Positions 41,633 through 58,040 of a stretch of 64,000 bases of DNA are shown one piece after another. Source of the DNA: a virus; IMG/VR virus record IMGVR_UViG_3300017991_000003, positions 32,001 to 96,000 of that record, one strand, 5' to 3'. The notes beneath the pieces were generated by a model. The model was given only the letters and a program-made list of their open reading frames with translations. It had not been told where the DNA came from and did not search any database. A program made the position numbers and the translations under genes. Each line of letters opens with the position of its first letter. Position 1 is the first letter of the stretch.

Positions 41633-44600
41633 ATGGCCGATAACGTCCAGCTCTACGACGCGCATCTAAACCTCTGGACCCTCAGGACATCCGAGGACAC
41701 AGAAATCCACACGCCGCACCACGTGTCGCGGCTGGCGGACGGGGAGGGGCGCTTCTACAGGCCCGGACGGCCGGTACCTGTGTCGATCTACGGGACGGAC
41801 GGGGTCGAGATCAACATCGAGGCCGGCTCGATCGCTGTCAGCACAGACCACAACGAGGACTCAGTAGCGGTCTTCGGGTCGTCGACCCCTGAGGGGCTGG
41901 AAAACTTCAGGTCGCTGGTGGTGGACCCCCAGGGGCACCTCCAGACCACAGTGGTCTCAGCGCCTGGGGTGGAGCCCGTCGGGGACTCGCCCGACGCGGG
42001 GCAGCTAGGTACGGTCATCCTAGGGGTCCAGGTAGGGGCAACGCCAGCTAGTCAGGTCACGGGGGACGGTCGGACAGCCCCTCTGATCATGGACGATCGG
42101 GGCCGGCTCTTCGTCTCTTTCGGCAACTCCGTCGCGGTTCTGCCCTTCACGCAAAAGGGTGACCTACTTACTTATGACGGATCTGACGAAGTTGTCCTGG
42201 GCCCGACGGTCGACGACGCGCTTCTGACACTGGACTCCAGTACCAGTACCGGCCTCAGGTGGGTGAGCCCGGTGACGAGCTCCCCCAGCCCCGTGCTCTT
42301 CCTACGCGAGGATCTAACATGGGCTCTGCCCTCAGCAGGGGCACCGGGCGGGGCTGCGGGCGGAGACTTGGGCGGGACCTATCCGAACCCGTCTGTGGTC
42401 GCTATCCAAGGGATTTCCACTTCTGCGGCTGCGCCAACGCCTGGGCAGACCTGGGTGTACACCGGCAGCGCTTGGAGTCCGGGAAGCCCGGCTACCGGAG
42501 CTGCTACGGACCACGGGACGCTCACAGGGCTCCTCGACGATGATCACACCCAGTACATCCTGGCTGATGGCTCTCGAGACTTCTCAGGCTCAATCGGCAT
42601 GGGTGGGAATGAGATCACGGATGTGGCCTCTCCTATCCTCGTATCCTGGGCAGCTAACAAGGGTTACGTTGATGATCAGATCACCGCGTCCGTCATCACG
42701 GACCACGGCGGGCTAGGCGGGCTCGGGGATGACGACCATACCCAGTACGTGTTGGTGGCTGGCACTCGTGCGTTCACGGGCGATCAGAGCCTAGGCGGTA
42801 ACAAGATCACGAGTCTGGGGTCCCCGACCACCGCAAGCGATGGAGCCAACAAAGGTTACGTCGACGCTAACGTGGTCACGGACCACGGCGCTTTGATCGG
42901 GCTGGGGGATGATGACCACACCCAGTACATCCTGACTGCGGGGACTCGAGCCTTCAGTGGTAACCAGAGCCTAGGCGGCAACCTGATCACAAGCCTAGGC
43001 TCGCCTACTACCGCAAGTGGTGGTGCTAACAAGGGTTACGTTGACGCGGCTATCACGTCGGCAGTGATCACGGATCACGGAGGGCTTGGCGGCCTGACGG
43101 ACGACGACCATACGCAGTACGTCCTGGTCGCAGGTACTCGAGCGTTCACAGGCAGCCAGAGCCTGGGCGGTAACCTGATCACGTCGCTAGGGTCTCCTAC
43201 TGTTGTAAGTGACGCAGCTAACAAAGGTTACGTTGATGCGCAGATCCCGACGAGCCTACCCCCTAGCGGGGCTGCTAGTGGTGATCTAGGCGGCACGTAC
43301 CCCGGGCCTACTGTGGTGGCCATTCAAGGCACCGGAGTCAGTGCAAACGCTCCAAGTACTGGTGATGGCCTGGTTTACACCGGAGCGGCTTGGAGTCCGA
43401 CCGCGGTCTATCGACCTGGCGGGACGGATGTGGCTGTGGCAGACGGGGGCACCGGGGCGTCGGACGCGTCCACGGCGCGTAGCAATCTAGGCCTGACCAT
43501 CGGGCTCGACGTCCAAGCCCACTCCGCAGTTCTTGACGCTACAACGGCCAGTTACACAACCGCGGCCGAGGGTAAGCTCTCGGGCATCGAGACCAACGCT
43601 GATGTCACGGACACAGCCAACGTGACGGCCGCTGGCGCTGTCATGATCGGCACAACGGCCGCGGCCGGGGACCTGAGCGGTACCTACCCGAGCCCGACGG
43701 TCGTGGCCATTCAGGGGACTGGCGTCTCGAGCACTGCGCCGAGCTCTGGGCAGGCCCTGATCTACTCCGGCACTGTCTGGAGCCCCAGCACGCTCCCCAG
43801 CGGGGTGACGGACCACGGGGCCCTGACCGGACTCGGAGACGACGACCATACCCAGTACATCCTGGTTGGTGGCACTCGCGCCTTCACGGGCAACCAGTCG
43901 ATGGGCGGCAACCTGCTCACGTCGTTGGGGAGCCCGGTGGCGGTAACAGACGCAGCTAACAAGGGTTACGTCAATGCCTCGATCACCGCGGCCGTCGTCA
44001 CGGACCACGGGGCCCTTGACGGGCTGGCCGATGACGACCACACCCAGTACCACAACGACGCTCGGGCGCTGACGTGGTTGGGGACGCGCGACACAGATGA
44101 CCTGGACCCGAGCGCCACCCGTCTCTACATGAGCCCGGGTGAGCGCACCAAGCTCGCCGGGATCGAAGCGCTTGCCGATGTGACCGATGCGGCCAACGTG
44201 GCCGCGGCCGGCGCTGTCATGGTCGGTGACGCTGCGGGCGGTGATCTTAGCGGTACCTACGCAAACCCGTCCGTGGTCGCGATCCAGGGTACGGGTTGCT
44301 CTTCAGCAACGCCGACCGCCGGCCAGACCTGGGTCTACTCCGGGTCCCAGTGGAGTCCTGGCTCACCCGCTGTTGGTGGCGCGTCAGATCACGGAACCCT
44401 GACCGGGCTGGGCGACGACGACCACACTCAGTACATTCTTGTTGACGGTACACGGGCCTTCACAGGCGCAGTTAGTCTCGGTGGGAGCCAGATCAACAGC
44501 CTGGCTTCGCCCACGCTCCCAGCAGATGCAGCCAACAAGGGCTACGTCGACGACCAGATCCCGACGAGTCTACCCCCTAGCGGGGCAGCGTCTGGCGACC

Positions 44601-45409
44601 TTGGTGGGACCTACCCGGGCCCAGACGTGGTGGCTATCCAGGGGACCGCGGTCAACTCGGCGACGCCGACGACGGGTGAGGCCCTGCTCTACTCGGGAAC
44701 GCAGTGGAGCCCTGGGCCGATCAACTTCCTCGAGCTCAACGACGTCGATCCCACAGGCCTGACCAACCTCGACCTGTTCTACTACAGCTCGGCGTCGGGG
44801 ACTATCGTCCGGTCTAGCGGCCTCACGACCTACGCGTTCTACACGCACAGCGGATCGCACATCCACGGACAGTACGACGCAATCGACGGGGATCAGCTAT
44901 CGATCACCCAGCCGGGCGTCAACTACTCCCCGACGACCGACGCGACATACGGCACCAACACGGCGCACCTCGCTGCCCATCTGCGGGGTATCGGTCTGGT
45001 CCTGGAGGATGTCAGTCCCGCGGTCACCAAGCTCGCCGGGATCGAGGCGGGCGCTGAAGCCAACGACGTTCAGACCAAGAGCATCACGATCGAGGCGCCG
45101 ACCACGACGGAAGACATCTCGTTCTTCTACGCTCCGGTAGCGATGACGATCTCAGAGATGGTCACGGTCCTGGTGGGCTCTCCTACGCCGTCCCTAGCGT
45201 GGACGCTCCGGCACAGCACCGACAGGAGCGCTGTGGGCAACGAGGTCATCACCGGGGGATCCACGGCGAATAGTACGACGACCGGTAACGTGCTGACCTC
45301 CTTCAACGACGCAACGGTCCCAGCCAACTCCTTCCTGTGGGTTGAAACGGCGAGCCCCAGCACGAACGTGACGAGCTTCCAGCTCAGCGTTGAGTACACC
45401 GACGACTGA
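41633..45409 (+). CDS. Tail fibre / receptor-binding protein with internal repeats
   Basis: 1258 aa; seven copies of a unit containing TDHGxLxGLxDDDHTQY...GANKGYVD and five copies of a second unit DLxGTYPxPxVVAIQGT; AGGGGAGGA ribosome-binding site before ATG. Confidence 0.7.
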   Translation: MADNVQLYDAHLNLWTLRTSEDTEIHTPHHVSRLADGEGRFYRPGRPVPVSIYGTDGVEINIEAGSIAVSTDHNEDSVAVFGSSTPEGLENFRSLVVDPQGHLQTTVVSAPGVEPVGDSPDAGQLGTVILGVQVGATPASQVTGDGRTAPLIMDDRGRLFVSFGNSVAVLPFTQKGDLLTYDGSDEVVLGPTVDDALLTLDSSTSTGLRWVSPVTSSPSPVLFLREDLTWALPSAGAPGGAAGGDLGGTYPNPSVVAIQGISTSAAAPTPGQTWVYTGSAWSPGSPATGAATDHGTLTGLLDDDHTQYILADGSRDFSGSIGMGGNEITDVASPILVSWAANKGYVDDQITASVITDHGGLGGLGDDDHTQYVLVAGTRAFTGDQSLGGNKITSLGSPTTASDGANKGYVDANVVTDHGALIGLGDDDHTQYILTAGTRAFSGNQSLGGNLITSLGSPTTASGGANKGYVDAAITSAVITDHGGLGGLTDDDHTQYVLVAGTRAFTGSQSLGGNLITSLGSPTVVSDAANKGYVDAQIPTSLPPSGAASGDLGGTYPGPTVVAIQGTGVSANAPSTGDGLVYTGAAWSPTAVYRPGGTDVAVADGGTGASDASTARSNLGLTIGLDVQAHSAVLDATTASYTTAAEGKLSGIETNADVTDTANVTAAGAVMIGTTAAAGDLSGTYPSPTVVAIQGTGVSSTAPSSGQALIYSGTVWSPSTLPSGVTDHGALTGLGDDDHTQYILVGGTRAFTGNQSMGGNLLTSLGSPVAVTDAANKGYVNASITAAVVTDHGALDGLADDDHTQYHNDARALTWLGTRDTDDLDPSATRLYMSPGERTKLAGIEALADVTDAANVAAAGAVMVGDAAGGDLSGTYANPSVVAIQGTGCSSATPTAGQTWVYSGSQWSPGSPAVGGASDHGTLTGLGDDDHTQYILVDGTRAFTGAVSLGGSQINSLASPTLPADAANKGYVDDQIPTSLPPSGAASGDLGGTYPGPDVVAIQGTAVNSATPTTGEALLYSGTQWSPGPINFLELNDVDPTGLTNLDLFYYSSASGTIVRSSGLTTYAFYTHSGSHIHGQYDAIDGDQLSITQPGVNYSPTTDATYGTNTAHLAAHLRGIGLVLEDVSPAVTKLAGIEAGAEANDVQTKSITIEAPTTTEDISFFYAPVAMTISEMVTVLVGSPTPSLAWTLRHSTDRSAVGNEVITGGSTANSTTTGNVLTSFNDATVPANSFLWVETASPSTNVTSFQLSVEYTDD
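42507..43250 (+). repeat. Four tandem in-frame copies of a ~186-bp (62-aa) repeat in the fibre gene
   Basis: DDDHTQY codon strings recur at about 42537, 42731, 42911 and 43101. Confidence 0.85.
43801..44560 (+). repeat. Three further copies of the same 62-aa repeat interleaved with AIQGT-motif units
   Basis: DDDHTQY codon strings at about 43845, 44033 and 44413. Confidence 0.8.
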
Positions 45410-46545
45410 TGAGTGACTTCCTAGTCCAGCGCGATCAGACCGACGTGCCCACCGCCGGCACGACTGCGTCGATCACCGCCGTCTCGAGCCTGAACTCTGC
45501 ATTCGAGATGATGAGCAGCAACCGCCGGATGTCTGGCGGCCCCTCTGCGGTTACGACCAACCAGGAGGCTGATGACCTCTCCGCGGCCGGCGTGCTCACA
45601 GACACGAGCACGATCACCTACTCGCGAGTCTCCGGGTCGAGCTCGAACACGATGCGCTGCGCCATGGAGGTGGTGGAGTACACGGGCCCAGCGGGCGGCC
45701 CCAACGAGTTCATCGTGCGGGGGCGGTACACAGGTCTACTGACCGGCGGCACCAACTCAGTAAGTGTCACCGTGTCCGGTGTCTCTGACAAGGACAGGTG
45801 TATCCCGATCATCACCGGCATCTTGTGCGAGGACACAACGGACGGGGGTGCCCGGGCTACCGGTCTGGTCCTGCTCACAAACGCGACTACCGCAGTGGTC
45901 TATGCAGGCGGGTCCGCCTCTCGTGTGACTGTGCACTTCACGCTAGTTGAGTTCACTGGATCGGCGTGGACTGTCGGGCACGCTGCGGCTGGTCCTGTCT
46001 CGGCTGACTCGGGGTCCGCTACGATCGTCACGGGATCAAACGGCTCGAGCGGAACGACCGTGGATGTCGGGGACTGGGGTACCGCTTGCATCTTCGCGCA
46101 TCATGCGGGCGATCTGGGCTCGGACGCCAATCAGGCCATCGCAGATAACTGGCCCAACATCACACCCACCTCCGGGAGCACGACCTCAGTCGACTACACC
46201 TTCAACTCCCAGCACGACGGGGTCAACAACCTACACCTGGCTCACGTTCTCCAGCACGACGATATGGTCGTGCAGCGGATCACAGACACTGGCAGCCATA
46301 CCGGGGCACGGAACGTGTCGATCCCGTCCACGCTCTCGTCTATTAGCGAGGCTTTCGTGCGAGTGTGCCGAACCTCGAGCGGTGCGGGTACGGCCTACGG
46401 CCGTGGTTGGGTCAACGCCCGGCTGACTACGACCAGCAACGTAGAGCTCTGGGTCCACCGAAACGGCAACTCGATCGATACCCGCATCGAGGTTGTTGAC
46501 CTCTCTAGCATCTCCTCGGCTACCAGGAGGATCTTCGTCGTCTGA
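45409..46545 (+). CDS. Beta-rich tail fibre-associated protein
   Basis: ATG overlaps fibre stop (TGATG); Ser/Thr/Gly-rich 378-aa ORF. Confidence 0.6.
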   Translation: MSDFLVQRDQTDVPTAGTTASITAVSSLNSAFEMMSSNRRMSGGPSAVTTNQEADDLSAAGVLTDTSTITYSRVSGSSSNTMRCAMEVVEYTGPAGGPNEFIVRGRYTGLLTGGTNSVSVTVSGVSDKDRCIPIITGILCEDTTDGGARATGLVLLTNATTAVVYAGGSASRVTVHFTLVEFTGSAWTVGHAAAGPVSADSGSATIVTGSNGSSGTTVDVGDWGTACIFAHHAGDLGSDANQAIADNWPNITPTSGSTTSVDYTFNSQHDGVNNLHLAHVLQHDDMVVQRITDTGSHTGARNVSIPSTLSSISEAFVRVCRTSSGAGTAYGRGWVNARLTTTSNVELWVHRNGNSIDTRIEVVDLSSISSATRRIFVV

Positions 46546-47354
46546 TGACTGACAACATCCGAATCCAGACGGTCGACGGAGAGCGGTGGATCCGCACCTC
46601 CGAGATCGGCGGGGTCCACCACCCACACCACATCGCGCGCCTGTCCGACGGCTTGGGCGTGGTGTACAGTCCGGGCTATCCCGTCCCGGTCTCGATCTTT
46701 TCCGCAGATGGGTCGGCAACCATTACGCTTAGCGGCGGCGACCTAGCTGTTGGTCTGGACCATACCGAGGACTCGATCACGATCTGGGCGCACACCAACG
46801 CGGCGGGCTCCGGCAGCCCTGTCGCTGTCGTGGTCGACACCGATGGCCACCTCCAGGTCGACGTGCTCTCGAGCGATTGGCCGCAGCAACCTTTCGACGA
46901 ACCGGTACCAGCTGAGTACTCCGGCATGGTTATGCTCGGGGTCCAGACGGGTAGCCCTGAAGCACAAGCCACGGATGGCGCCTTCGCGCCCTTCCAGTTT
47001 GACAAGCAGGGTCGCCTGATCGTATCGATCGACCAGTCCTACCAAGGCGGGGCCTTGAAGCTGGTATCGGCCACCAAGACGAGCCCGTTCGTCGTGTGGG
47101 AGGATGATGTGCCCGCCTCTCTCCACTATGTCGACGTCTATCGTTGTTCTGGAACGTACACAATTGGCCTCCCTTCTCCCGCTGATCCCGCGGCAGCGGA
47201 TGGCCGAGTAGTCTGGATCAAGAACATAGGCACAGGCATGCTTACACTGAGTCCTGAAGGCGGGACCCTTGAGCTCAAAGCGGGGCTACTGCTAGCTAGC
47301 CGATCCTCTATCACCTTGCGCTCCAACACTGTAGACGACTGGGAGATTCTCTAA
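46545..47354 (+). CDS. Second fibre-like protein sharing the N-terminal domain of the 41633 fibre
   Basis: Residues 1-130 align by eye with the fibre N-terminus (shared HHxxRLxDG, YxPGxPVPVSI, DPxGHLQ blocks); ATG overlaps upstream stop. Confidence 0.6.
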   Translation: MTDNIRIQTVDGERWIRTSEIGGVHHPHHIARLSDGLGVVYSPGYPVPVSIFSADGSATITLSGGDLAVGLDHTEDSITIWAHTNAAGSGSPVAVVVDTDGHLQVDVLSSDWPQQPFDEPVPAEYSGMVMLGVQTGSPEAQATDGAFAPFQFDKQGRLIVSIDQSYQGGALKLVSATKTSPFVVWEDDVPASLHYVDVYRCSGTYTIGLPSPADPAAADGRVVWIKNIGTGMLTLSPEGGTLELKAGLLLASRSSITLRSNTVDDWEIL

Positions 47355-48127
47355 TGACGTTCCTACCGCTCGACACAGACTATTACGCCGCCGTCGAGGC
47401 AGGCGAGGTTCCAGGTGCGACCCTGCTCAACAAGTTTGGCAGGGCGGAGATCGGGACATCGTTGACGCCTATCAGTCGGGAGCTGGTCTACCAGACCCCT
47501 ACAACGGCCACAGTGCTGGAGTTTGTATCGGATGATGCCAACGATACGAGCGCAGGGACTGGGGCTCGGGAGATCTCGATCATTGGCCTGAACTCCTCGT
47601 GGGAGGAGGTGATGCAGACCGTCACAACAAACGGGACAACAGCGGTAGCCCTCTCGACCCCGCTAATCAGGATGTATCGGTGGTACGTGACGAAGTCCGG
47701 AACCTACGCCACGTCATCAACGGGATCACATGCCGGGACGCTGACTATCCAAGAATCTGGTGGCGGCACGGTGTGGTCGTCAATCGGCGTAACACCCTTC
47801 CCCACCGGGCAGTCCCAAATCGGGATCACGACCATCCCCATCGGTAAAAGAGGCGTCCTGCTGTCTACTCACGTGTTCGTTGACACGTCTAAGAGTGTTG
47901 ATCTGTACCTGTTTCAGCGGCCTAACGCGGACGTCGTTACAGCGCCCTACACAGGAGCGATGCGCGTTGTTCGAGAGTTCCAGGGTGTCACAGGCCCGAT
48001 TACCTACGTTCCCCGCGGAGGGGCCGGCGCATTCGTCGGGCCTTGTGATATCGGGTTTATGGGCCAGGTAACAGTTGGCACGGCCGCTGTGTCCTGCGAC
48101 TTCGAGCTGCTTCTGCTAGATCTTTAG
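47354..48127 (+). CDS. Beta-rich tail fibre-associated protein
   Basis: 257-aa ORF; ATG overlaps upstream stop (TAATG). Confidence 0.6.
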   Translation: MTFLPLDTDYYAAVEAGEVPGATLLNKFGRAEIGTSLTPISRELVYQTPTTATVLEFVSDDANDTSAGTGAREISIIGLNSSWEEVMQTVTTNGTTAVALSTPLIRMYRWYVTKSGTYATSSTGSHAGTLTIQESGGGTVWSSIGVTPFPTGQSQIGITTIPIGKRGVLLSTHVFVDTSKSVDLYLFQRPNADVVTAPYTGAMRVVREFQGVTGPITYVPRGGAGAFVGPCDIGFMGQVTVGTAAVSCDFELLLLDL

Positions 48128-48129
48128 GT

Positions 48130-48164
48130 AAAAAAGAGGAGAGTAGCGAGCCGCTGCCCTCCTC
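48130..48164 (-). terminator. Putative intrinsic terminator for the minus-strand block
   Basis: Stem GAGGAG 48136-48141 / CTCCTC 48159-48164 with nested stem; on the minus strand it is followed by CUUUUUU. Confidence 0.4.
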
Positions 48165-48208
48165 CACACCGTGGGTCATCACCCCCTAGGATCCTCCCCG
48201 CAGTGTCG

Positions 48209-49174
48209 CTAGATCTGGTACGCGTCCAGCGGCGTGCCGCGGGTCATCCCCAGCCTGAAGCCAGCCGCCTTCGCGTGACCGCCACCGGAGATGGCGATGC
48301 CGCGGTCGAACAAGTCGCGCGCGACGGCCGAGACGTCGATGTCGTTGTCTGCGTGAGTGCGGAGACTGACGATAAGCTGATTGGTATCTCGATCAATGCG
48401 CCAGTTGCCCACAATCGCATCGCCCATCTTGTTGTAGAGAAGCTCAGCAGCCTCAGAGATGTAACGATCCTCAGGAGCCAACCACATCTGGTACCCGCCG
48501 ATCTCGTACAGCGAGACGTTGTAGTTGCTCTCGGCTGCTTGCTTGTAGATGTGCCGGCGGATGCCTCGACCCTCGGCCACAAGCCGGTCCCGGCCATCCG
48601 GGCAATCAAGACTTTGGTTGAGCATGTCCCAGTTCTCCCAGTGCCGGGGATAGCTCTGGATAGCAGCGGCAATCTCCTCAGTGTCCGGAAGCTCCTTCAG
48701 CCATAGATCACGATCACGGATGTACTCGATGAGCGGGGTCGAGTGCTCGAAGAGCAGACGATTTGTCAAAGACGCTCCGCACTCCTCCATGTCGAACACG
48801 GCGAAGTCCCGGCATCCGCTGAGCGCATCCTTGGCGGTCTTGTGGTGATCGATGACCACCAGGTTCTTCATGCGCTCGAGCCAAGCGAGCAGGACATCAC
48901 GGCCCCAAGAGAAGTCCACGATGATGATCTGCCAACCATCCGGGACCTCTGGCACGGTGCCGTCGTAGTTGACTCCGCTGAAAGTCAGCTGGGTCTTACC
49001 GTCCCACAACGTATCGAACCCCTTGCAGAGATCCGTGAAGCCGTGGGCCATGAACCACTTGCGAACAAGCCACGCAGCCGTGAAGCCATCGGAGCAGGGG
49101 TCGTGATAGAACACGACTGTCGGGACGTCCAGGAGGATGCGGACGCCAGGCTCACTTCGGGGCTTGATAGACAT
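48209..49174 (-). CDS. DHH-family phosphoesterase (NrnA/RecJ-like)
   Basis: Motif I YHDPCSDG, DHH motif VVIDHHK, DHHA1 GGGHAKAAGF. Confidence 0.65.
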   Translation of the reverse strand: MSIKPRSEPGVRILLDVPTVVFYHDPCSDGFTAAWLVRKWFMAHGFTDLCKGFDTLWDGKTQLTFSGVNYDGTVPEVPDGWQIIIVDFSWGRDVLLAWLERMKNLVVIDHHKTAKDALSGCRDFAVFDMEECGASLTNRLLFEHSTPLIEYIRDRDLWLKELPDTEEIAAAIQSYPRHWENWDMLNQSLDCPDGRDRLVAEGRGIRRHIYKQAAESNYNVSLYEIGGYQMWLAPEDRYISEAAELLYNKMGDAIVGNWRIDRDTNQLIVSLRTHADNDIDVSAVARDLFDRGIAISGGGHAKAAGFRLGMTRGTPLDAYQI

Positions 49175-49562
49175 GAGGAAGTTTCTCGAGGATGAGGTAG
49201 ATGTCGCCAGCGTCCCAGGCAGCGGGATCGGTGAGGGCCTTGAGTACCTGAGTAGACGCCTTCAAATCATCCGGCGCGTAGGGGTCGCCGGTCTTGGCGT
49301 TCGACCACATTTTGGGCGTCAGTCGAAGCGGGCCGGCCCCAACCGGGGAGGACGCAATGTCGCCGCGGTACAGGAGCACGCTGATGACGTAAGCGATCTC
49401 TTGATCATCGAGGTGCTGATCCTCGACAACCTCGGAGGGCATCGACTTCGTCAGCTTGGGACTCACGTAGGTACTGAACAGGTCCCAGGACACGAAGCCG
49501 AGGAACCCGACAAGCAGGAGCGCTACTACGGTAGCGGTAACCCTAGCGATGAAGGTTTTCAT
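49152..49562 (-). CDS. Secreted or membrane-anchored protein (N-terminal signal/TM)
   Basis: Start at MKTFIARVTATVVALLLVGFLGFV; adjacent to the lysozyme-like gene. Confidence 0.5.
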   Translation of the reverse strand: MKTFIARVTATVVALLLVGFLGFVSWDLFSTYVSPKLTKSMPSEVVEDQHLDDQEIAYVISVLLYRGDIASSPVGAGPLRLTPKMWSNAKTGDPYAPDDLKASTQVLKALTDPAAWDAGDIYLILEKLPHVYQAPK

Positions 49563-50106
49563 GGTAAGCGCGGACACGGGTCCAGAAGGGGATGGTGGAG
49601 ACCCGGGTCATGCCCATGGGTCCTCCGTTATGAATTCGAGCGATGGTCTCCAAGTCTCGAGCTGCCCAAGCCTCGGGGACCCAGCGAAGCATGTAGGCTT
49701 TGACGACCTGAGCTCCCATGGGGTAGATGCGGCAGAGCTCGTAGTCATCCGGGATACTTGGATCCTGCTCGCGAGCATCCTGCCAGTAGGCGCGGCTGAT
49801 CTGAAAGGGGCCGATTGATGTTCCGCCGCCCCCATCCGGCGGGTCGTACTGGCCGTCGGTCTCGGCAAGCCAGATCAGCTCGAGGACCTGCTCTTCGGTG
49901 AGTACAGGCTCTGCCGGAGCCGGGACACGGTCGGCCGCTTCAACGCCTGCGGCAGCACCATCCTTGAAGCCTTGGTCGTAGGCCAGGCCGCTGTCCTTGC
50001 GGTAGTTGTACGCGGTGATTGACGCACTCAGCACCACCAGGATGGCGGTGACGAGAAACCACGCGACCCAATCGCGGGTGTGGTTGGTGAATGGTTGAGT
50101 AGTCAT
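49543..50106 (-). CDS. Lysozyme-like protein (destabilase-like signature) with N-terminal TM anchor
   Basis: Start set at internal Met; TM helix WVAWFLVTAILVVLSASITAY; SIGPFQISRAYWQDA resembles the GxFQI...YW.D lysozyme core. Confidence 0.45.
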   Translation of the reverse strand: MTTQPFTNHTRDWVAWFLVTAILVVLSASITAYNYRKDSGLAYDQGFKDGAAAGVEAADRVPAPAEPVLTEEQVLELIWLAETDGQYDPPDGGGGTSIGPFQISRAYWQDAREQDPSIPDDYELCRIYPMGAQVVKAYMLRWVPEAWAARDLETIARIHNGGPMGMTRVSTIPFWTRVRAYHENLHR

Positions 50107-50198
50107 GCTGGTTCTCTGGGTGGTTGTTACAAGACGTTTGTAGCCAAGGGACTTATGACCGATAGGAGACCCGAGCTGAGCACCCGGATCCCCTGTGG

Positions 50199-51593
50199 CT
50201 AGTAGGCAGCCTGACCACCGCTGCTCGCCATGTCCTGGACAGGGCCGAGCTGCGCGAACCGCATGTCGTAGAGATCCCATTGAACACGATAGGGTTGGTC
50301 GACCGCACCGTCTCGGACCTTGCCGAGCTTCATGTCGATGACGCGGGCGTTGTTACCGGCATCCTTCGGCGGTACCAGGAAGACGAGGTTGTTGGAGTCG
50401 TGCGAGATGCTCTGGCTGAAAGCCACAGCATCAGCGTTCGACCGGGCCAGCGTGCCTTCATTTCGGCGCAGCTGCGTGGCCAGCATGTAGTGACGGTTGG
50501 ACATCAGCGTATGCAGACGCATCTGCCGCATGTTGCCCTCCACCTTCTGCCAGCGCTCCTTACCAGGGCCCTCCATGTAGTAGAAGCCGTCGATCAAGAC
50601 CAGGTCCGCGCCAAACTCCTCAGCCTGTGCGGCAACCTGATCAGGAGTCGTAGCCTGGTTAGGGCCCACGATGCGCAGGTTCTCACCAACGCGAGCGTGC
50701 GGCCCGTCTGCTTTCAGGCTACGCAATGCCTCGAAGTAGGCCGCCTTCTCCACGTCACTTAGCTTCTGCTTCATGAGGCGGTTGAAGCTAGTGCTCGAGA
50801 GCACCGCGGCTTGGCGTCGAGCCACATCGATGGGTGCCATCTCCAGACTGACGATCAAGACCCGAGCGCGGGCGGCGTCCTTCTGCTCCTGCGTCCACGC
50901 CGGGATGTCGGGTGGGCGGTGGAAGATGTAGGGATCTCCCAGGAGGCCGGCGGCACTGTTGAGCACGATGAACCAAGTCTTGCCGAGGCCGGTAGGAGCC
51001 ACACAGCTGGTGATCTGCGCAGGGTGCCAGCCCCCAAGCTGTTCCTGAATGAACAGGAACGGACAAGGGATGCCGAGCTTCACGCCGGCCAGCCGATCGT
51101 TGTAGTCCTGCTCGAGATCCTCAGCGTACTCTCGGAAGTCCTTGATCTCCGTCTTGTGTGCCGAGTACCTAGCTTGCAACGTATGAGCGTACAAGGACAT
51201 CGCGTCCTTGATGTCGAACGGGTCGGTGCGCTCGGTCAGCTGCTTGTGAAGATCCTGAAGGCTCTCTAGCACATCTACACGCACCGCCTCCTTAGCGACT
51301 TCGTCGTAGAGAACCGAGATGCTCGCTTCCGGGATCTCAGTACCAGCCAAGATCGTGGGAAGCTCAGGCCAGGCGCGCTGCGCCGTGTCAGGCGTAGGAA
51401 GCTCGTTGTACTGTGCTCGGTACCCGACGACCCACTCGATGATCTCCGTCATCGGCTCTTGAAAGAACCCGGGGTTGAGTCCGTTCTTGGCGACGTGGTG
51501 GTCGAAGGCGGCTAGGTTCCGGTCACTCAGGATCTTGGTCAGGAAGAGAGCCTCGACCCTGTCTCGAGAGTTGACGTTGGTGAACCCGGTCAC
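50199..51593 (-). CDS. DnaB-like replicative DNA helicase
   Basis: Walker A APTGLGKT, SLEM motif VLIVSLEM, LVLIDGFYYM and LATQLRRNEG segments. Confidence 0.75.
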   Translation of the reverse strand: MTGFTNVNSRDRVEALFLTKILSDRNLAAFDHHVAKNGLNPGFFQEPMTEIIEWVVGYRAQYNELPTPDTAQRAWPELPTILAGTEIPEASISVLYDEVAKEAVRVDVLESLQDLHKQLTERTDPFDIKDAMSLYAHTLQARYSAHKTEIKDFREYAEDLEQDYNDRLAGVKLGIPCPFLFIQEQLGGWHPAQITSCVAPTGLGKTWFIVLNSAAGLLGDPYIFHRPPDIPAWTQEQKDAARARVLIVSLEMAPIDVARRQAAVLSSTSFNRLMKQKLSDVEKAAYFEALRSLKADGPHARVGENLRIVGPNQATTPDQVAAQAEEFGADLVLIDGFYYMEGPGKERWQKVEGNMRQMRLHTLMSNRHYMLATQLRRNEGTLARSNADAVAFSQSISHDSNNLVFLVPPKDAGNNARVIDMKLGKVRDGAVDQPYRVQWDLYDMRFAQLGPVQDMASSGGQAAY

Positions 51594-52159
51594 TGGTATA
51601 GCCCCAGCTCAATAGCTGTTCGGTACTCGCGATGCACCGGATAGGTCTCGATCACCTCTCTCGGGCAGATCACTAGCGTGACCTTGTTTGCAACTGATAG
51701 GCGCGGTGTGAGGATGCCTGACACACTTCGACAGAACCTATCAGAGACGTCGTACGGCGGGAGACCTGTCAGGACGGCGAAAGGACAAGCACGGAGCTCT
51801 TCCCACATGGTCAGCTCAGCGTTTTCGATGCGCGGCTGGTCACGGATAATGGCTCGCTCGGCTGCCGCAATGTCACACCAGAGCAGCCAGTCAGCCCGCC
51901 ACCGGTAGAGCGCGTACAGGGTCTTGAGATCGGCTAGAAACTCGGCATCAAGCTCGACGGCGTGGACGTATCCAGGCTGTTTTGCTAGCCGCGGTTCCCA
52001 ACGTTCTTGCTCAGCCGGGGTAGGTTCGGGCAGATCTTGGAGGGCCTGGATGACGGGAGCAGGGAACCCGTAGTCCGCCAACCAATCAGAGCCAGTCCCT
52101 CTGATCCTCTTCAAGTTGTCGCAGACCCCGTGGTCCGCGGGCCAGATTCGATAGCTCAT
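51590..52159 (-). CDS. Hypothetical protein
   Basis: 189-aa ORF; GTGA overlap with the helicase start. Confidence 0.5.
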   Translation of the reverse strand: MSYRIWPADHGVCDNLKRIRGTGSDWLADYGFPAPVIQALQDLPEPTPAEQERWEPRLAKQPGYVHAVELDAEFLADLKTLYALYRWRADWLLWCDIAAAERAIIRDQPRIENAELTMWEELRACPFAVLTGLPPYDVSDRFCRSVSGILTPRLSVANKVTLVICPREVIETYPVHREYRTAIELGLYQ

Positions 52160-52394
52160 ACTGATCGTCGGTGTAGGAGTCGTATAGCTGCTTGATCACC
52201 GGCTCGGTAGCGATGATCCGGTCGAGCCGCTCACATTGAAAATCGGACAGCGCTTTCAAGGCGACGAGGAGCTCGAGCACCTCGAGGCGACTCTGGAGCA
52301 GCACGAACTTGTGCGTGGGGTCCTGAGTACGCAGCGCCTCGTGTTCGAGATGCTCGAGCTCCGTCAAGAGCTCAAAGGGATCGAGCTGGGTCAT
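52086..52394 (-). CDS. Hypothetical small acidic protein
   Basis: 102-aa ORF; overlaps downstream gene by 74 nt, so one start is wrong. Confidence 0.4.
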   Translation of the reverse strand: MTQLDPFELLTELEHLEHEALRTQDPTHKFVLLQSRLEVLELLVALKALSDFQCERLDRIIATEPVIKQLYDSYTDDQYELSNLARGPRGLRQLEEDQRDWL

Positions 52395-52711
52395 GTCGTG
52401 ACTTGTCGGGTCTTCACGGGAGGGCCGGCTCGCATGCCTTTGTAGCGGCGCTTCGGAGTCACCTTATTGCGCCGTCTACGTTCCCGCTCTCGAGCCTCCC
52501 GAGTACGGGCAGCGCGCTGAGCCTGAATCCGACGCAACGCATCATCGGCAAGACAGGCTGCACACCAGCCCTCTTTACCGTGATCGCTCAGGTCCGAACA
52601 GATGCTTCCGCCTTGGGACCACATCTCAGAGCAACCAAGGCTCCGGATGCGGACTAGCGCATCGCGCCAGACCCGCTCATCCGCATCCGGGCTTGAGAGC
52701 TGTCTAGGCAT
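52391..52711 (-). CDS. Hypothetical small protein with basic C-terminus
   Basis: Start set at internal Met 2 nt after the upstream gene stop; contains CSEM...CSD...CAAC. Confidence 0.45.
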   Translation of the reverse strand: MPRQLSSPDADERVWRDALVRIRSLGCSEMWSQGGSICSDLSDHGKEGWCAACLADDALRRIQAQRAARTREARERERRRRNKVTPKRRYKGMRAGPPVKTRQVTT

Positions 52712-53924
52712 CGGACTCAGCCGGTGCCACCTCTTCAGGGGCCTCGGCCTCCGTGGGCTCCTCGGTCGGCTCTTCCTGGCACTGGGGGCCAGTGTCAGAG
52801 ATGGCCTCGCGATCGAGCTCGAGCCGGCCTTCGAAGAGCTTGTAGAGCGCCACATCGCTCTCCGCGCCAGCCAGGCCGGGCGCGTCCTCGAACACACCGT
52901 AGGTGTTCAGCGACACCGGCCCCTTCGGGTCCGGCTGCTGGATCGTCCAGCTCTTGCCGCCCATGATCAGGCCCTGGCCGGTGCGGATGGCCACACTGAC
53001 CGTGATACCCTGAGGCTGCTGGGCAGCTTCCTGCATGTCGATCACGCTTCCCGAGCGCTCCAGCGGACCCAACTGGGTCAGGAACAGGGCGTAAGCGTCG
53101 ATGCGGTCGATCTCACGGCGCAGAACATCGAGGCGATAGGCGTCGCTGTTGACGTTGCACTCGGTCAGGTTCATCAGGACCGTGACCTCCGGGCCGGCGA
53201 TCACGGCGATCATCGGCAGGGGAGCGGTGCGGTTCTGGATCATGGCCAGGCGGTTGGGCTGCTCCAGGATCCGGCCGATACCGAGGGTCACGGGCCTGTC
53301 GAGGTCCTTGTGCTCGTGGTCAGCCCACTGGAAGCGCGTCAGACCCTTAGCGTAGTTCGGGTCCAAACCCAGGCGGACGGTCGGCAGCTCCAGGAAGGGG
53401 CAGCCGTAGTCCACCCAGCGCGCCGGCTGGCAGTTGGCGATGGCGACGATCTCGGGGCGGGCCGAAGTGCCTAGGAAGGCGGGGAGCATGGCCTCGATGT
53501 CCCCCATGGCGCGGCTGTACAGGGAGCCTTGGGTGATGACGTCGCGGCTCATCACCACGGACTCGCCGGGGGTCGGCCGGCGCACGGTCACGGTGAAGGG
53601 CTCCTGCGCCGTGTTGAGCTGCAAGGGCAGCACACCCCCCAGCCGGCGGCAGACGCTGCGCAGGAGGGACGTGGATTGGGTGCTGTGACGGAAGCGCAGG
53701 TCTTCGAACTCGAAGTAGGACTCGGCTAGATCGGTGTCGACATCACCGGTCATCCGGGAGCAGCCGTTGAAGACCTCGATACGGAGCTCGTTGATGTCGT
53801 CAGCCATCTTGGCGATCTCCGAGAGCGACTGCTTCTCGGGATCGGTGAGGTCGATGACTTGGTCGACCTCGAAGGTGCGGCCGTTGATCAGAAACGTGTT
53901 GGGGGTTAGCTGTGCGGTGAGCAT
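52704..53924 (-). CDS. Hypothetical protein with acidic C-terminal tail
   Basis: 406-aa ORF; C-terminal EEPTEEPTEAEAPEE. Confidence 0.55.
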   Translation of the reverse strand: MLTAQLTPNTFLINGRTFEVDQVIDLTDPEKQSLSEIAKMADDINELRIEVFNGCSRMTGDVDTDLAESYFEFEDLRFRHSTQSTSLLRSVCRRLGGVLPLQLNTAQEPFTVTVRRPTPGESVVMSRDVITQGSLYSRAMGDIEAMLPAFLGTSARPEIVAIANCQPARWVDYGCPFLELPTVRLGLDPNYAKGLTRFQWADHEHKDLDRPVTLGIGRILEQPNRLAMIQNRTAPLPMIAVIAGPEVTVLMNLTECNVNSDAYRLDVLRREIDRIDAYALFLTQLGPLERSGSVIDMQEAAQQPQGITVSVAIRTGQGLIMGGKSWTIQQPDPKGPVSLNTYGVFEDAPGLAGAESDVALYKLFEGRLELDREAISDTGPQCQEEPTEEPTEAEAPEEVAPAESDA

Positions 53925-53980
53925 GGGCGTTCAGGGGGTTGCGGGTGTGTCGCTGATTGTTGACAGACGGCAGGCTGCTG

Positions 53981-55402
53981 TCAAGGGTTGGGGATGCCTC
54001 GGCGAGCGGCTGTGTACAGCGTGTCGAAGGCCTCGCCCCGGAGCTTGTAGGACGCCATGATGACGTCGCCTTTCCCGGTCGGAGGTGTCTTGTAGGACCT
54101 GAGAGCCTTGACGGCCAGCTCGAGGACCTCGGGCTCGTCGACCCACTCAGGGTAGATGTCCAGGACGCCGTTACGGATCATCGCGTCATGATCCTCGGTC
54201 GAGACAGGAGCGGCGTTGATGTACTCCATGTCGGACATCACGTGGTTGCGCAGCCAGGGGAAGATGTTGTTCCAGGCGGCGGTCCAGTAGGCAGGGATGA
54301 AACCGACGTCTTGGCACCTCTGAGGGCGCATGAAGTCCTTCCAGTCCCGGATCCAGACCTTCAGGAAGACGGCCTGCTGCTGGTTGGTCCTGATCCCCGA
54401 GCTGGCTAGGAGCTCGCGGAACTGGTTCATGATCTGGGTCGTACGGGCGATGGAGTGGGCTAGGCGACCGTTGGGGAGGGTCTCGTTGAACAGGCACTTG
54501 ATCCCTGAGGCCTTACAGGCTGCTCGGATCATGCGGACGAAGTCCATGGACTTCCAGCGATCGACGTGGGAGAGGTCGAGGGGATCGACTCGCTCAGCCG
54601 GCTTGGGGTGGGCTGGGTCCTCCTGAGGGGCCCTGTACTTGGACAGGGTCTGCTTGGACTTCTTCTTGACCCGGTCATCCTGACGGGCCTTCTCCTCGCT
54701 GTAGGCGGACCCACTGGTCACGTCTTGGATGCGCTTCTTCGGGGCCCTATCCCTTCGGGTCATATCCCCCTCCTGAGGGCTTGGCGGGTCCTCCCGCCTC
54801 GACGAGGAATGCGAAGCATTCCGAGGAGAGTCAGAGTCCTTGTAGGACTCTTCCTCGTAAGGGCGGAAGCCGGCTTCACCCTGCTGGCGGCCCCTAGAAG
54901 CGGGGTCACCCCCCGCCGCGGCCACGGTACCGGCCTTGGCCGCCTCCGGGCAGTGCTCCTGTACCCAGGGGTCGTCTCGGTACCTGGCCCACAGTGCTCG
55001 CCAGCACCTGTGGGTGATCGTTCGGGGCCGGAGCTTGACCACTAGGTCCAGCGTGATCGGGACCGGCACGAGCAGGCTCGAGGCCCGGACGCGGTGGGTC
55101 CGATGAAGCAGGCCCACCTCCACAAGCCGGTTCAGGATCGTACGGATCTGCCGGCTCGACAGGTCGCAGACGTCTCCGAGCACACGCGCGGACGCCGAGC
55201 AGATCCCGTTACTGGACGCCTCCGCGAAGGAGACCACCTCCTGATAGACAAAAACCTCGGTCTTGGTGAGGACCGAGGAGCGTCTGACAGCCTTGGACAT
55301 CCGGTCGTAGCCGGAGACCTCCGGGGAGGGGGGCAAAATAATCGCATTTCCCTTAGCAGAAGGGACTTGCGTTCTACCAGTCTCGTGTCCTAGACTACTC
55401 AT
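53981..55402 (-). CDS. Helix-turn-helix domain protein (candidate replication initiator or regulator)
   Basis: N-terminal winged-helix-like segment (SSRQIRTILNRLVEVGLLHR); 473 aa. Confidence 0.55.
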   Translation of the reverse strand: MSSLGHETGRTQVPSAKGNAIILPPSPEVSGYDRMSKAVRRSSVLTKTEVFVYQEVVSFAEASSNGICSASARVLGDVCDLSSRQIRTILNRLVEVGLLHRTHRVRASSLLVPVPITLDLVVKLRPRTITHRCWRALWARYRDDPWVQEHCPEAAKAGTVAAAGGDPASRGRQQGEAGFRPYEEESYKDSDSPRNASHSSSRREDPPSPQEGDMTRRDRAPKKRIQDVTSGSAYSEEKARQDDRVKKKSKQTLSKYRAPQEDPAHPKPAERVDPLDLSHVDRWKSMDFVRMIRAACKASGIKCLFNETLPNGRLAHSIARTTQIMNQFRELLASSGIRTNQQQAVFLKVWIRDWKDFMRPQRCQDVGFIPAYWTAAWNNIFPWLRNHVMSDMEYINAAPVSTEDHDAMIRNGVLDIYPEWVDEPEVLELAVKALRSYKTPPTGKGDVIMASYKLRGEAFDTLYTAARRGIPNP

Positions 55403-55461
55403 GTCGAATGACTACTCGGCGTTGTGACCCAGGGCGCATACACCTTCAGGGTCATGAATAT

Positions 55462-55499
55462 GCGGGTGCCCGCCTTGTGCGGGCCCCGCTTCTTTTTTT
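55462..55499 (+). terminator. Intrinsic-terminator-like hairpin plus T-run oriented on the plus strand
   Basis: GCGGG-T-GCCCGC-CTTGT-GCGGGC-CCCGC followed by TTCTTTTTTT at 55490-55499. Confidence 0.35.
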
Positions 55500-55563
55500 G
55501 GGTACCCCGCACCCTACGCGGTCCTGGGGACCGTTTCAAGGTGCGGGGCTCCACAAATCGCAT

Positions 55564-56193
55564 CTAGCCGTCCGTCGTTACCCAGGTGGTCGTCCAGTTA
55601 CCAGCTCCGGCGTCCGGCCCTGTGTAGGTCACCTGCATCACCTGGTCCGTCGTGAGGTCGACCCTCTGCACGTTTGGTTGCGGCTGGGGCCGGGGCTCCT
55701 CGTAGGTGAAGCGGCTCCAGAACTGATCCTCGTCGATAGCCTTCAGCTCGTTTGAGCGCCGGCGGATATCGACCGTACCTGGAGCTAGCTTGAATAGTGA
55801 GACGTGGAAAGTGCCTAGGAGCTCTGTCGCATTGGCCTCTTGGAGTTGCTCGTGACCGTCCAGGTGCCGGAACGGGTACCACCTGTCCGTGACGCCCTGC
55901 ATCCTGCCTCCGATGTCCGAGAAGTGCGGGTAGTCTCGCATGCACGCATTGAAGATACGCTTCCACCATCGGGAGGAGTAGAGCGGATTGGTGCGAGCTC
56001 CGATATCTCGGCCCCTGAGGTGCTCTTCAATGTGTTGGAGGACCCTGAAGACGACAGCGCGGTGATCGCGATCCGTCGGGCCTCGAGAGCGCAGGGTGCG
56101 GAGCGGGAACGTGGCTACGTGAATGCTCTGCTCCTGGAGGTGGCGGGTGTTCGTGATGTGGAGGACCTGGATAGGGCGGGGCCGGCGACTCAT
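55564..56193 (-). CDS. Hypothetical protein
   Basis: Start at internal Met giving ATGA overlap (56190-56193) with upstream gene. Confidence 0.5.
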   Translation of the reverse strand: MSRRPRPIQVLHITNTRHLQEQSIHVATFPLRTLRSRGPTDRDHRAVVFRVLQHIEEHLRGRDIGARTNPLYSSRWWKRIFNACMRDYPHFSDIGGRMQGVTDRWYPFRHLDGHEQLQEANATELLGTFHVSLFKLAPGTVDIRRRSNELKAIDEDQFWSRFTYEEPRPQPQPNVQRVDLTTDQVMQVTYTGPDAGAGNWTTTWVTTDG

Positions 56194-56900
56194 GGCTTGG
56201 TCAGGGTCAGGATGGTGATCATGTAAGGCGTGCGCAGGAGTAGGTACTTGTCCTGGACTGCCCATAGCACGGGGCTCTTGCCTAGGAGGATCAGGCACTG
56301 GCGGAGCTTGGTGACGTTGACGGCCGGGTAACGGCGCTCACCCGAGATGGGGTACTCAGTCGGCTCGGCTCGAAGACCCTGCTGTGGGCAGATCTCCATG
56401 AACTGGTAGTTCAGGGCTGACTGATGTGCTCGCGATTGCGGGATGACACCCAGCGGGTCTCCGGTCACGCGCTTGAAGGCTGCGGAACGAGCAGCCAGTT
56501 GCTGCATCAGATCTGCGTGCGGGTAGTCAGGGCCGGCCTTCACTGGCGCAGCCCTCGGGGTGTCGAGCTGCGTGCTGCTGTAGATCGTGGTGACGGTCAT
56601 GTTGCAGACCATTCGATCTAGCGGCCAGTCCTCGACCCAGGTCAGCTCTTTGGTGATCGAGGGGTGCAGTTGGTAGAGCAGGCGGCCTCGACCGCGTGCT
56701 AGGTAAGGGCGCTTCCACGCAGCCAACCGGTGCGAGCCTTCGACCCGTTGAGGTGTTTGGTACTCCGCAAAGGGGCCGGCCGGTTCTGTCGGTTCTGCGG
56801 CTTTTCGAGGCTGCTCCAGGTGGGTCAGCAGGGTAAGGACTCGCGCCTGATCACCCGCGCTCAGGGCCTCGATACGCTCAGCGATGGTCTTGTCGGTCAC
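56190..56900 (-). CDS. Hypothetical protein
   Basis: GTG start at 56898-56900 preceded by AAGGAG 7 nt upstream; track ORF extends further into non-coding sequence. Confidence 0.5.
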   Translation of the reverse strand: MTDKTIAERIEALSAGDQARVLTLLTHLEQPRKAAEPTEPAGPFAEYQTPQRVEGSHRLAAWKRPYLARGRGRLLYQLHPSITKELTWVEDWPLDRMVCNMTVTTIYSSTQLDTPRAAPVKAGPDYPHADLMQQLAARSAAFKRVTGDPLGVIPQSRAHQSALNYQFMEICPQQGLRAEPTEYPISGERRYPAVNVTKLRQCLILLGKSPVLWAVQDKYLLLRTPYMITILTLTKP

Positions 56901-57127
56901 TAAAAAGCTCCTTGGTGAATCAACCGGAGCAGAGCTCCGGAGGTGAAAGGTGCCCCACCCGCCGAGAGGCGAGTGGGGCGGTTGCCAGGATGCACACGAA
57001 CTACTGGAGTGGTGGACCTGAGCTGAGCCGGAGTATGGCACCGGATCGAGCCGGATTCAGTGACTGCGTATAGCTCGTTGGGTTTGTCTACCTCGTGGAT
57101 GAGCTCGGAGTCACGACTCGAGCGGAG

Positions 57128-57289
57128 TCGCCTGCCTCGAGCTCATTGTTGCCATCATCTCGTCTGGTTGATGAGATGGCGGCGGCTCCTCCTCTCCTGT
57201 TATCCTGCGCTTACAGTATTCTCGGTGCCCGAGCTCGACCCATCTCGTCAACCTGACGCGATGATGGCAACAATGAGCTCGAGGCAGGC
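57128..57289. repeat. 31-bp perfect inverted repeat pair separated by 100 nt
   Basis: 57128-57158 is the exact reverse complement of 57259-57289, verified base by base. Confidence 0.9.
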
Positions 57290-57438
57290 GCCGCAGCGAG
57301 AGGCGCCGTGGCTCAGCCTCGTGGTGGGCAAACCCACGAGTTATTCGCAGACACTGAAGCCGGCCCGGTTGACATGCTCTGGCTCAGCTCAGGGTCTACC
57401 CGTAGGTGCAAGTGTGGCCGAGGTTGCTGTTGCGCTAT

Positions 57439-57457
57439 CTGCGGCGATGCGCCGCAG
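57439..57457 (+). repeat. Hairpin motif copy 1 (CTGCGGCG-ATG-CGCCGCAG)
   Basis: 8-bp stem, 3-nt loop; shares core GGCGATGCGCCGC with two other copies. Confidence 0.8.
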
Positions 57458-57785
57458 GACCCTCAAGTCAAGAGGGAATAGCTCTTCGTGTGCGGGGATT
57501 CCAAGGCAAGAGCCTGGATGGGCGCGCAGAGCATGATCCCGGTCGTGGAGGCGTGCCCGAGCTTTGTACGCGACCCGGTTCGGGTCGAGGATAAAGCGAA
57601 GGACCAGCACGCTGTAACGATCCGTGGATTATGCTCCGCGCTGTCCCAGCCAGCGCTTCGTTGGTAGTGGGAGGCGCCTCCGCTAGGAGGCGACGTCCTC
57701 GAGTTGCGCTACTGAAGCGACCACACATGCTGGCATGTGTAGCTTCAGGTGCGCAGTGCTCGAGGCCCACGACCAGTCGTACAGT

Positions 57786-57802
57786 GGCGGCGATGCGCCG
57801 CC
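57786..57802 (+). repeat. Hairpin motif copy 2 (GGCGGCG-ATG-CGCCGCC)
   Basis: 7-bp stem, 3-nt loop; same core. Confidence 0.8.
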
Positions 57803-58040
57803 TGAAGACGTTGTGGATTAGGCCTCCGGTAGGCCCGTTCCAGTCTTTCTACTCCCTTGGAAAGGTAGTCACCTCTTGCGAGGCTGGCTGGCTACCTTGG
57901 TATCGGCGCTCGTAGAGACTACCCGGTCACACGCCCGCCGGAGGCGGGCTTGTGGACGCGTGGTCTCAACGTAATGTGTCACAGGAGACAGCTCGAGGCG
58001 CAGCTCGAGCGGGCCTCCGGCCACAGTTTCTATCACTTGA

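Follow-up and report, generated by a model that had tools for sequence, protein, structure and literature searches.

A predicted membrane-anchored destabilase-family lysozyme encoded beside its degenerate, probably inactive paralogue and a DHH phosphoesterase in a large, uncultured phage

Animals are the textbook source of destabilase-type lysozymes, and the clam invertebrate-type (i-type) lysozyme is thought to inhibit itself by dimerizing. In phages, signal-anchor-release (SAR) endolysins, such as P1 Lyz and R21 of phage 21, are lysozyme-fold enzymes that carry an uncleaved N-terminal hydrophobic segment and are exported by the Sec system without a holin. Wall hydrolases that work with a second, noncatalytic component or are controlled by an inactive paralogue are also known: PlyC (PlyCA plus PlyCB) is a two-component endolysin, and EnvC and NlpD activate amidases. 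Stand-alone DHH/DHHA1 enzymes include phosphodiesterases acting on cyclic di-AMP (c-di-AMP) and on pApA. Here, we analyze a 64,000-nucleotide stretch of viral DNA (“the window,” positions 32001-96000 of IMG/VR record IMGVR_UViG_3300017991_000003), in which three adjoining minus-strand genes between positions 48209 and 50106 encode a lysozyme-like protein, a small hydrophobic partner, and a DHH/DHHA1 phosphoesterase. An original prediction, made from the sequence alone, had described this trio as a lysis-like module.

The lysozyme gene (49543-50106, minus strand) encodes a protein of 187 amino acids (aa) that starts with MTTQPF. The protein matches the Pfam Destabilase family (PF05497) at 36.7 bits (cutoff, 26.2), its orthologues in related phages reach 43.2 and 35.8 bits, and a profile built from the lysozyme and five relatives matches the leech destabilase 8bbu (E = 1e-18) as well as three clam i-type lysozymes. 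An AlphaFold2 (AF2) model based on a 53-sequence alignment has a mean predicted local distance difference test (pLDDT) score of 89.6; it consists of a long N-terminal helix (residues 8-51), a poorly ordered linker (residues ~52-70), and a domain (residues 71-186) that is mostly at a pLDDT of ≥96. When this model was compared with the PDB by Foldseek, the top six matches were all i-type lysozymes (including 8bbu, 2dqa, 3ab6, and 4pj2; probability, 1.0), with target-normalized TM scores of 0.70-0.73 for i-type lysozymes and with lytic transglycosylases far behind. The destabilase/i-type identity proposed originally is therefore borne out by Pfam, profile, and predicted fold alike, and the absence of a muralytic fold, which had been named as the outcome that would overturn the proposal, is not what we found.

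The catalytic domain (residues 71-187; 49546-49896, minus strand) contains Glu82 (codon, 49861-49863), a residue that all 53 aligned family members share and that corresponds to the catalytic Glu of 8bbu. In destabilase numbering, the catalytic Glu is Glu34 and the second catalytic Asp is Asp46 (PMC10126035). The family motifs GPFQI, YWQD, and HNGGP are invariant and kept in the phage protein, whose core, IGPFQISRAYWQD, occupies residues 98-110. The i-type lysozymes 8BBU/8BBW, 2DQA (Tapes japonica), and 3AB6 (Meretrix lusoria) share with it the family, the fold, the catalytic Glu, and the GPxQI, YWxD, and HNGGP motifs. However, these are animal proteins, with many Cys residues in the aligned 8bbu sequence, whereas the phage domain has one Cys, an N-terminal anchor, and Gly in place of Asp46. 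Judged by sequence, predicted fold, and catalytic Glu, the protein is a member of the destabilase (i-type) lysozyme family, although it does not keep the second catalytic residue (see below).

The N-terminal transmembrane segment noticed originally is also clear. Residues 13-33 (WVAWFLVTAILVVLSASITAY; 50008-50070, minus strand) form a predicted signal-anchor with a Kyte-Doolittle mean of 2.28 over 19 residues, a G/A/S/T fraction of 0.42, and no Gly. The orthologues P0002, P0011, and P0039 have similar anchors, so that all four clade members carry one. As read from the sequence, the flanking charges favor an N-in/C-out orientation in three of them (the window protein, P0002, and P0039), whereas those of P0011 are ambiguous. 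An N-terminal hydrophobic segment on a lysozyme-fold enzyme is a trait common to this protein and the SAR endolysins. In contrast, the catalytic family differs, and a pinholin is associated with SAR endolysins whereas none adjoins this gene. SAR anchors are weakly hydrophobic, rich in Gly and Ala, and able to leave the membrane; two SAR anchors compared here have a hydrophobicity of ~2.1 and a G/A/S/T fraction of 0.53-0.63 rather than 2.28 and 0.42. The lysozyme would work most like a Sec-exported (SAR or signal-peptide) endolysin and is a candidate at most for the SAR class.

The partner gene (49152-49562, minus strand; 136 aa) overlaps the lysozyme gene by 20 nucleotides (nt) at 49543-49562, exactly as described before. 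Its start agrees with an independent gene call on the source contig, and an alternative GTG start exists at 49577. The product had been taken for a signal-peptide protein. It does have an N-terminal hydrophobic stretch, but this stretch comprises 19 residues with no obvious cleavage site, and the protein more likely carries an uncleaved signal-anchor than a cleaved signal peptide. A search of 5.8 billion proteins found only three members of the partner family, each from this phage clade; a further search for relatives returned only the same phage from IMG/VR and none in a metagenome scan. The two orthologues (176 and 185 aa; 30 to 34% identity) occupy the same position in two relatives of the window phage (loci L085 and L088), and the invariant residues of the family include R-G, G-P, W, and W-x-x-G-D. 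The partner gave no sequence match in Pfam, PHROG, NCBIfam, or the PDB.

The relationship of the partner emerged from profile comparison. By hhalign, the partner profile matches the destabilase profile with a probability of 81% (E = 1.2e-5; 57 columns). Partner residues 76-127 (49182-49337, minus strand; GPLRL..W..A.QVLKA..AWDAGD) match lysozyme residues 98-158 in register, a stretch that runs from the GPFQI motif up to the helix preceding HNGGP. When the single partner sequence was shuffled, 1 of 300 shuffles reached the observed score. For the three-sequence profile the observed score was 39.5, and 249 of 250 column shuffles scored ≤22.7; the remaining shuffle scored 130.7, an outlier that we regard as an artifact. 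Furthermore, a hidden Markov model (HMM) of the partner, run against the 12,269 open reading frames (ORFs) of 80 viral destabilase loci, found only destabilase ORFs (26 matches; best E = 9.3e-6). The expected catalytic place has no conserved Glu (Y/H/M-R-G in the three members, from a manual alignment outside the hhalign span), HNGGP is missing, and the window partner ends soon after the homologous segment. From these comparisons, we conclude that the partner is not an unrelated secreted protein but a conserved, membrane-anchored, degenerate paralogue of the adjoining lysozyme, and it is almost certainly inactive as an enzyme.

Two other identities for the partner were rejected. A spanin is ruled out because the external domain is lysozyme-like and no lipoprotein-like embedded ORF was seen among the alternative-frame ORFs. 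An SLT domain, which the string GAGPLRLTP might have suggested, gave nothing in Pfam even at E = 5, the significant relation being to the destabilase family. Like PlyC and the EnvC/NlpD systems, the locus would combine a wall hydrolase with a noncatalytic partner that probably binds the enzyme or the wall. The difference is that here the partner is a degenerate copy of the enzyme’s own domain and both proteins are predicted to be membrane anchored. We know of no described counterpart in which a lysozyme is paired with a membrane-anchored dead copy of itself, and such a pair would represent a novel means of building or controlling an endolysin.

The DHH/DHHA1 phosphoesterase gene (48209-49174, minus strand; 321 aa) overlaps the partner gene by 23 nt. 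Upstream of the lysozyme gene, at a distance of 92 nt, lies a gene for a DnaB-like replicative helicase (50199-51593, minus strand; phrog_19, 1.6e-40; Pfam DnaB_C, 29.7 bits), and the trio forms the 3' end of a block of replication genes. On the other side, four plus-strand genes, the last of which ends at 48127, converge on the trio; one of their products is a repeat-rich protein of 1,258 aa, and we take them to be tail fiber genes. The order DnaB, anchored lysozyme, partner, DHH, and convergent tail fiber genes recurs in the two divergent relatives, L085 and L088, whose lysozymes are 63% and 57% identical to the window lysozyme over the catalytic domain. The spacing from DnaB to lysozyme is 42 to 92 nt across the three phages; the trio genes overlap by 4 nt in L085 and are separated by a 7-nt gap in L088. 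The family matches and the conserved order in two relatives show that the three minus-strand genes, whose coordinates agree with the original prediction, are not chance ORFs.

Hairpins lie on both sides of the trio. Just 3' of the DHH gene, in the space that separates it from the convergent genes, is a terminator-like stem-loop (48129-48165, minus strand), which reads GGAGGAGGG...CUCUCCUC followed by UUUUUU in an RNA fold of window positions 48120-48215 on the minus strand (z = -2.1; 3 of 200 shuffles fold as well). A 13-bp stem-loop (50164-50194, minus strand) directly follows the DnaB stop codon, ahead of the lysozyme gene, and a counterpart exists in L085 (3227-3274) and in L088 (9964-9995), its position but not its sequence being kept. 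Across the three phages, this upstream stem-loop has z scores of -3.2 to -4.7, and none of 200 shuffles folds as well. It is followed by a U-run in L088 and by none in the window. In L085 and L088 it extends to the lysozyme start codon, where it could gate translation or transcription. Taken together, the gene overlaps, the flanking hairpins, and the conserved order indicate that the trio is a discrete, translationally coupled unit, which supports the idea of a module, though not its purpose.

The lysozyme start itself differs among the three phages. In L085 and L088, GTCATGAG contains the lysozyme start codon (MSLVT...), whereas the window has GTCATAAG instead at 50150-50157 (minus strand). 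The window lysozyme starts 48 nt further downstream and in another frame (MTTQPF...). From this comparison of sequences, it seems that the ancestral start was lost and an N-terminal extension dropped in the window phage.

We consider an endolysin to be the most likely function of the lysozyme, with a probability of about 0.45, and nonlytic remodeling of the cell wall to be the main rival. In favor of an endolysin are the family and predicted fold of the lysozyme, its conserved catalytic Glu and motifs, the anchor, the gene overlaps and flanking hairpins, the paralogy of the partner, the fact that no other Pfam-recognizable peptidoglycan hydrolase was seen in the ~83 kb examined, and the occurrence of the family in other phages (see below). 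As an endolysin, the lysozyme would be expressed from a cotranscribed, translationally coupled unit of three genes, whose first product, an invertebrate-type lysozyme (destabilase, GH22-i), would act as a muramidase. The host Sec machinery would insert this protein in the cytoplasmic membrane with its N terminus inside and its C terminus outside, an orientation that we infer. A flexible linker of ~20 residues would thereby suspend the catalytic domain in the periplasm, where Glu82 would serve as the general acid in cleavage of the peptidoglycan glycan strands. Export would most likely proceed without a holin, as for SAR or signal-peptide endolysins. The partner, made in step with the enzyme as a membrane-anchored and catalytically dead paralogue, may bind the enzyme or the cell wall, restraining or positioning the enzyme until the membrane is de-energized. 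The cytoplasmic DHH/DHHA1 enzyme would most likely degrade short RNA, pAp, or single-stranded DNA; functionally, it would belong with the neighboring replication genes and would merely share the transcript.

Several observations weigh against an endolysin. (i) No holin, pinholin, or spanin adjoins the trio, whose neighbors are DnaB and, on the DHH side, the convergent presumed tail fiber genes. The only holin-like gene seen (12129-12554, minus strand; encoding a 4-TM protein of 141 aa that ends in a charged tail) has no family match, sits next to a sigma factor gene, and is 37 kb from the lysozyme gene. (ii) The conserved place after DnaB could mean that the trio is expressed with the replication genes and not late. 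(iii) An anchor that has no Gly and is more hydrophobic than the two SAR domains compared may never be released. (iv) At Gly93 (codon GGC, 49828-49830, minus strand), the position of the family’s second catalytic residue, Asp is found in ≥90% of the 53 aligned members and in the catalytic site of 8bbu, so that, unless Asp91 takes its place, the protein may have little or no activity as a muramidase. (v) A single-sequence AF2 model of the partner reaches a pLDDT of only 65, and a fold search with it gave no meaningful match. (vi) Our statements on gene content cover ~83 kb of the source contig, and a conventional endolysin may lie in the other ~92 kb. Because of the missing holin and spanin and the conserved place after DnaB, the earlier term “lysis-like module” stands for a discrete, coupled unit with a real lysozyme, while its role in lysis is a matter that we infer.

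Much of this evidence would suit a device for wall remodeling, in which expression alongside the replication genes would let the tethered lysozyme and its dead paralogue loosen or mark peptidoglycan locally for cell enlargement, for exclusion of superinfecting phages, or for preparation of an exit site, while other genes in the remaining ~92 kb carry out final lysis. The position directly after DnaB, at a spacing kept within 42 to 92 nt in three phages, the lack of an adjoining holin or spanin, a strongly hydrophobic and thus perhaps permanent anchor, and a lost catalytic Asp suggestive of a weakened enzyme all point this way. So does the observation that the nearest homologues are cellular, secreted proteins of Planctomycetota encoded among housekeeping genes, which suggests that a physiological wall enzyme was captured by the phage. 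However, a strong stem-loop separates DnaB from the trio in all three phages, so that coexpression with DnaB is not established; the lysozyme is the only Pfam-recognizable peptidoglycan hydrolase in the ~83 kb examined; and related genes of uncultured phages end what appear to be tail modules, the usual place of lysis genes. On balance, we hold wall remodeling to be unlikely, if a serious competitor. That both lysozyme-like proteins are noncatalytic, the first decaying through its Asp-to-Gly change and the pair serving as peptidoglycan-binding anchors or being lost, is improbable. The glycine-rich loop does read DGGGG in the window lysozyme rather than DGDGG, the Gly93 base is identical in an independent IMG/VR assembly (0 mismatches over 3385 nt), and the orthologues P0002, P0011, and P0039 retain Asp, which together argue for a real and recent change and not an assembly error; the partner, moreover, already lacks the catalytic Glu and, in the window phage, the C-terminal part as well. 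Yet all other invariant residues of the enzyme are kept (Glu82, GPFQI, YWQD, and HNGGP), the domain is modeled at very high confidence, and Asp91 lies two residues from Gly93 in the same loop. Many lysozyme-fold enzymes work with a single carboxylate.

The tight coupling of the DHH gene to the pair in all three phages (with overlaps of 4 to 23 nt in two of them), the hairpins that bracket the trio, and the c-di-AMP and pApA phosphodiesterases among stand-alone DHH/DHHA1 enzymes would be consistent with cooperation of all three proteins. The DHH enzyme would then remove a nucleotide signal or metabolite, such as c-di-AMP or pApA, nanoRNA, or a cyclic-oligonucleotide defense signal, while the lysozyme pair acts, and loss of the signal would sensitize the envelope or switch off a defense. 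Gene overlaps are, however, frequent in phages, also between genes of unrelated function, the DHH genes of cultured phages sit among early and nuclease genes, and the DHH protein matches no defense-related model. Together with the survey of loci given below, these points speak against cooperation, which we regard as improbable. An elaboration of the endolysin reading, which we would not expect to hold, is that the pair forms a membrane-tethered heterodimer, a self-contained, holin-independent lysis timer in which the pseudo-enzyme keeps the enzyme inactive, in a manner recalling the self-inhibition of the clam i-type lysozyme, while the DHH enzyme might clear an envelope or defense nucleotide signal and the clade may infect Planctomycetota.

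The DHH/DHHA1 identity of the third protein, already recognized originally, is supported by a match to phrog_4771 (1.4e-53) and by a DHHA1 score of 28.1 bits (cutoff, 25.9); the N-terminal DHH domain scores 20.3 bits, below its cutoff of 28.1. The motifs DxD, D, DHH, and GGGH (D29, D87, D109-H110-H111, and G297-G298-G299-H300) are invariant in three clade orthologues. Phage proteins of phrog_4771 and stand-alone DHH/DHHA1 enzymes of the NrnA type are similar in size to the window protein (321 aa) and have the same architecture, and all catalytic motifs are kept, but the window protein is only 24 to 34% identical to known phage DHH proteins. It showed no significant sequence match to a solved NrnA or RecJ structure, only a marginal PDB match, and no NCBIfam equivalog match. 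No defense-system model matches any of the trio proteins.

Relatives of the DHH protein occur in 111 deposited phages, many of them of 200 to 350 kb, where they are annotated as phosphohydrolase, oligoribonuclease, or single-stranded DNA exonuclease and sit among small early genes and nucleases. The family occurs in many large phages, whose hosts include Caulobacter, Brevundimonas, Xanthomonas, Pseudomonas, Acinetobacter, Serratia, Klebsiella, and Vibrio. None of 80 other metagenomic loci with DHH relatives contains a destabilase-family lysozyme gene within 6 kb, and none of the 80 best viral destabilase loci has a DHH gene nearby, which rules out a general linkage of the two families. The DHH enzyme is an ordinary one for a large phage, and its linkage to the lysozyme is peculiar to this clade. 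Nothing in these contexts points to a part for it in lysis.

The destabilase family is widespread in uncultured phages, with relatives encoded on at least 581 IMG/VR contigs. Our statistics on viral loci refer to the best 80 of these destabilase loci. In 37 of them, the gene lies a few kilobases downstream of a gene for a protein of ~1,100 aa, which we tentatively take to be a tail protein. A degenerate second copy and a DnaB gene nearby were likewise not found in any of the 80 loci. Among 50,697 deposited phage genomes, a search with three queries found a relative in only 7. A distant family member is encoded in seven records of Cellulophaga phages; in Calle_1 it bears the annotation “lysozyme (Destabilise-like protein).” The phage destabilases, including those of Cellulophaga phages Calle_1-3, phi38:1, and phi40:1 and UniProt entry A0A6J5P067 (“Destabilase [uncultured Caudovirales phage]”), share their catalytic domain with the window lysozyme, and several have a short N-terminal hydrophobic leader, but they are at most ~50% identical to it and most of those sampled have ~126 to 140 aa. 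The family has no PHROG family. In the literature searched, the only mention of phage “destabilase” domains was among the miscellaneous domains of PhaLP 2.0 (PMC13237592), and no experimental characterization of a phage member was found.

Among bacteria, the family is concentrated in Planctomycetota. A scan of representative genomes from 185,579 species gave 188 with a relative that contains our search motif, and nearly all of the best 80 cellular relatives belong to Planctomycetota, where they lie on large chromosomal contigs among cellular genes; the motif used as the search pattern may bias this list of taxa. The bacterial members with ARxHNGGPxG (loci L094-L173) are small proteins and almost all from Planctomycetota. 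Outside the phage clade, the nearest homologues of the window lysozyme are planctomycete proteins, with 50 to 58% identity over the catalytic domain. That these are prophage remnants was ruled out, because no other window gene matches these loci and the neighboring genes look cellular. No paper linking the destabilase family to Planctomycetota was found in the literature searched. The planctomycete origin of the nearest homologues points to gene exchange with this phylum, from which few phages are known to us, and offers a host lead for a lineage of 175- to 193-kb phages with almost no recognizable genes.

The window lies on a metagenomic contig of 174,660 bp (ENA ERZ27256773 k141_2423138) with a G+C content of ~62%. 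The same lysozyme protein sequence is also recorded on a contig of up to 193 kb, and the IMG/VR contig that matches the window over 3385 nt is a 91.6-kb viral contig from another sample. In the ~83 kb examined, we found genes for a large terminase, DNA polymerase A, a Toprim primase, UvrD-like and DnaB-like helicases, a RecA-like protein, RuvC, sigma factors, ThiF, and a reverse transcriptase (RT), together with a long plus-strand block that presumably contains structural genes. A close relative among deposited phages was ruled out, since none gives a nucleotide match to the window and the DNA polymerase is ≤30% identical to that of any deposited phage. Thus, the source is a large, very divergent, uncultured tailed phage, represented by contigs of 175 to 193 kb.

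No sigma-70 promoters were found in 47800-51800. The phage encodes at least two sigma-70-family proteins (12771-13619, minus strand, in the window and L092 45-785, outside it) with regions 2 and 4 and a faint match to region 3. These sigma factors suggest that the phage has promoters of its own, which would explain why no consensus sigma-70 promoter is seen near the trio.

The presumed tail fiber genes next to the trio form a block of four that is inverted within the long minus-strand replication region. In the gene for the 1,258-aa protein (41633-45409, plus strand), a 90-nt repeat encoding TDHGxLxGLxDDDHTQY is present in seven copies, mostly 180 to 192 nt apart, along with other repeated segments. 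On the other side of the trio, an inverted repeat with 66-nt arms (57114-57179 and 57240-57305; 86% complementary and 60 nt apart) lies in an apparently intergenic region; no Rfam family was detected in 46000-58500, a range that includes this repeat. Finally, the gene at 62652-63755 (minus strand) encodes the 367-aa RT (Pfam RVT_1 and phrog_2825). It matches the PADLOC models of retron-type RTs, with values of 2.4e-44 for RT_III-A and 3.6e-41 for RT_Ec107-like, and these matches suggest a retron-like RT within the genome of a large phage.

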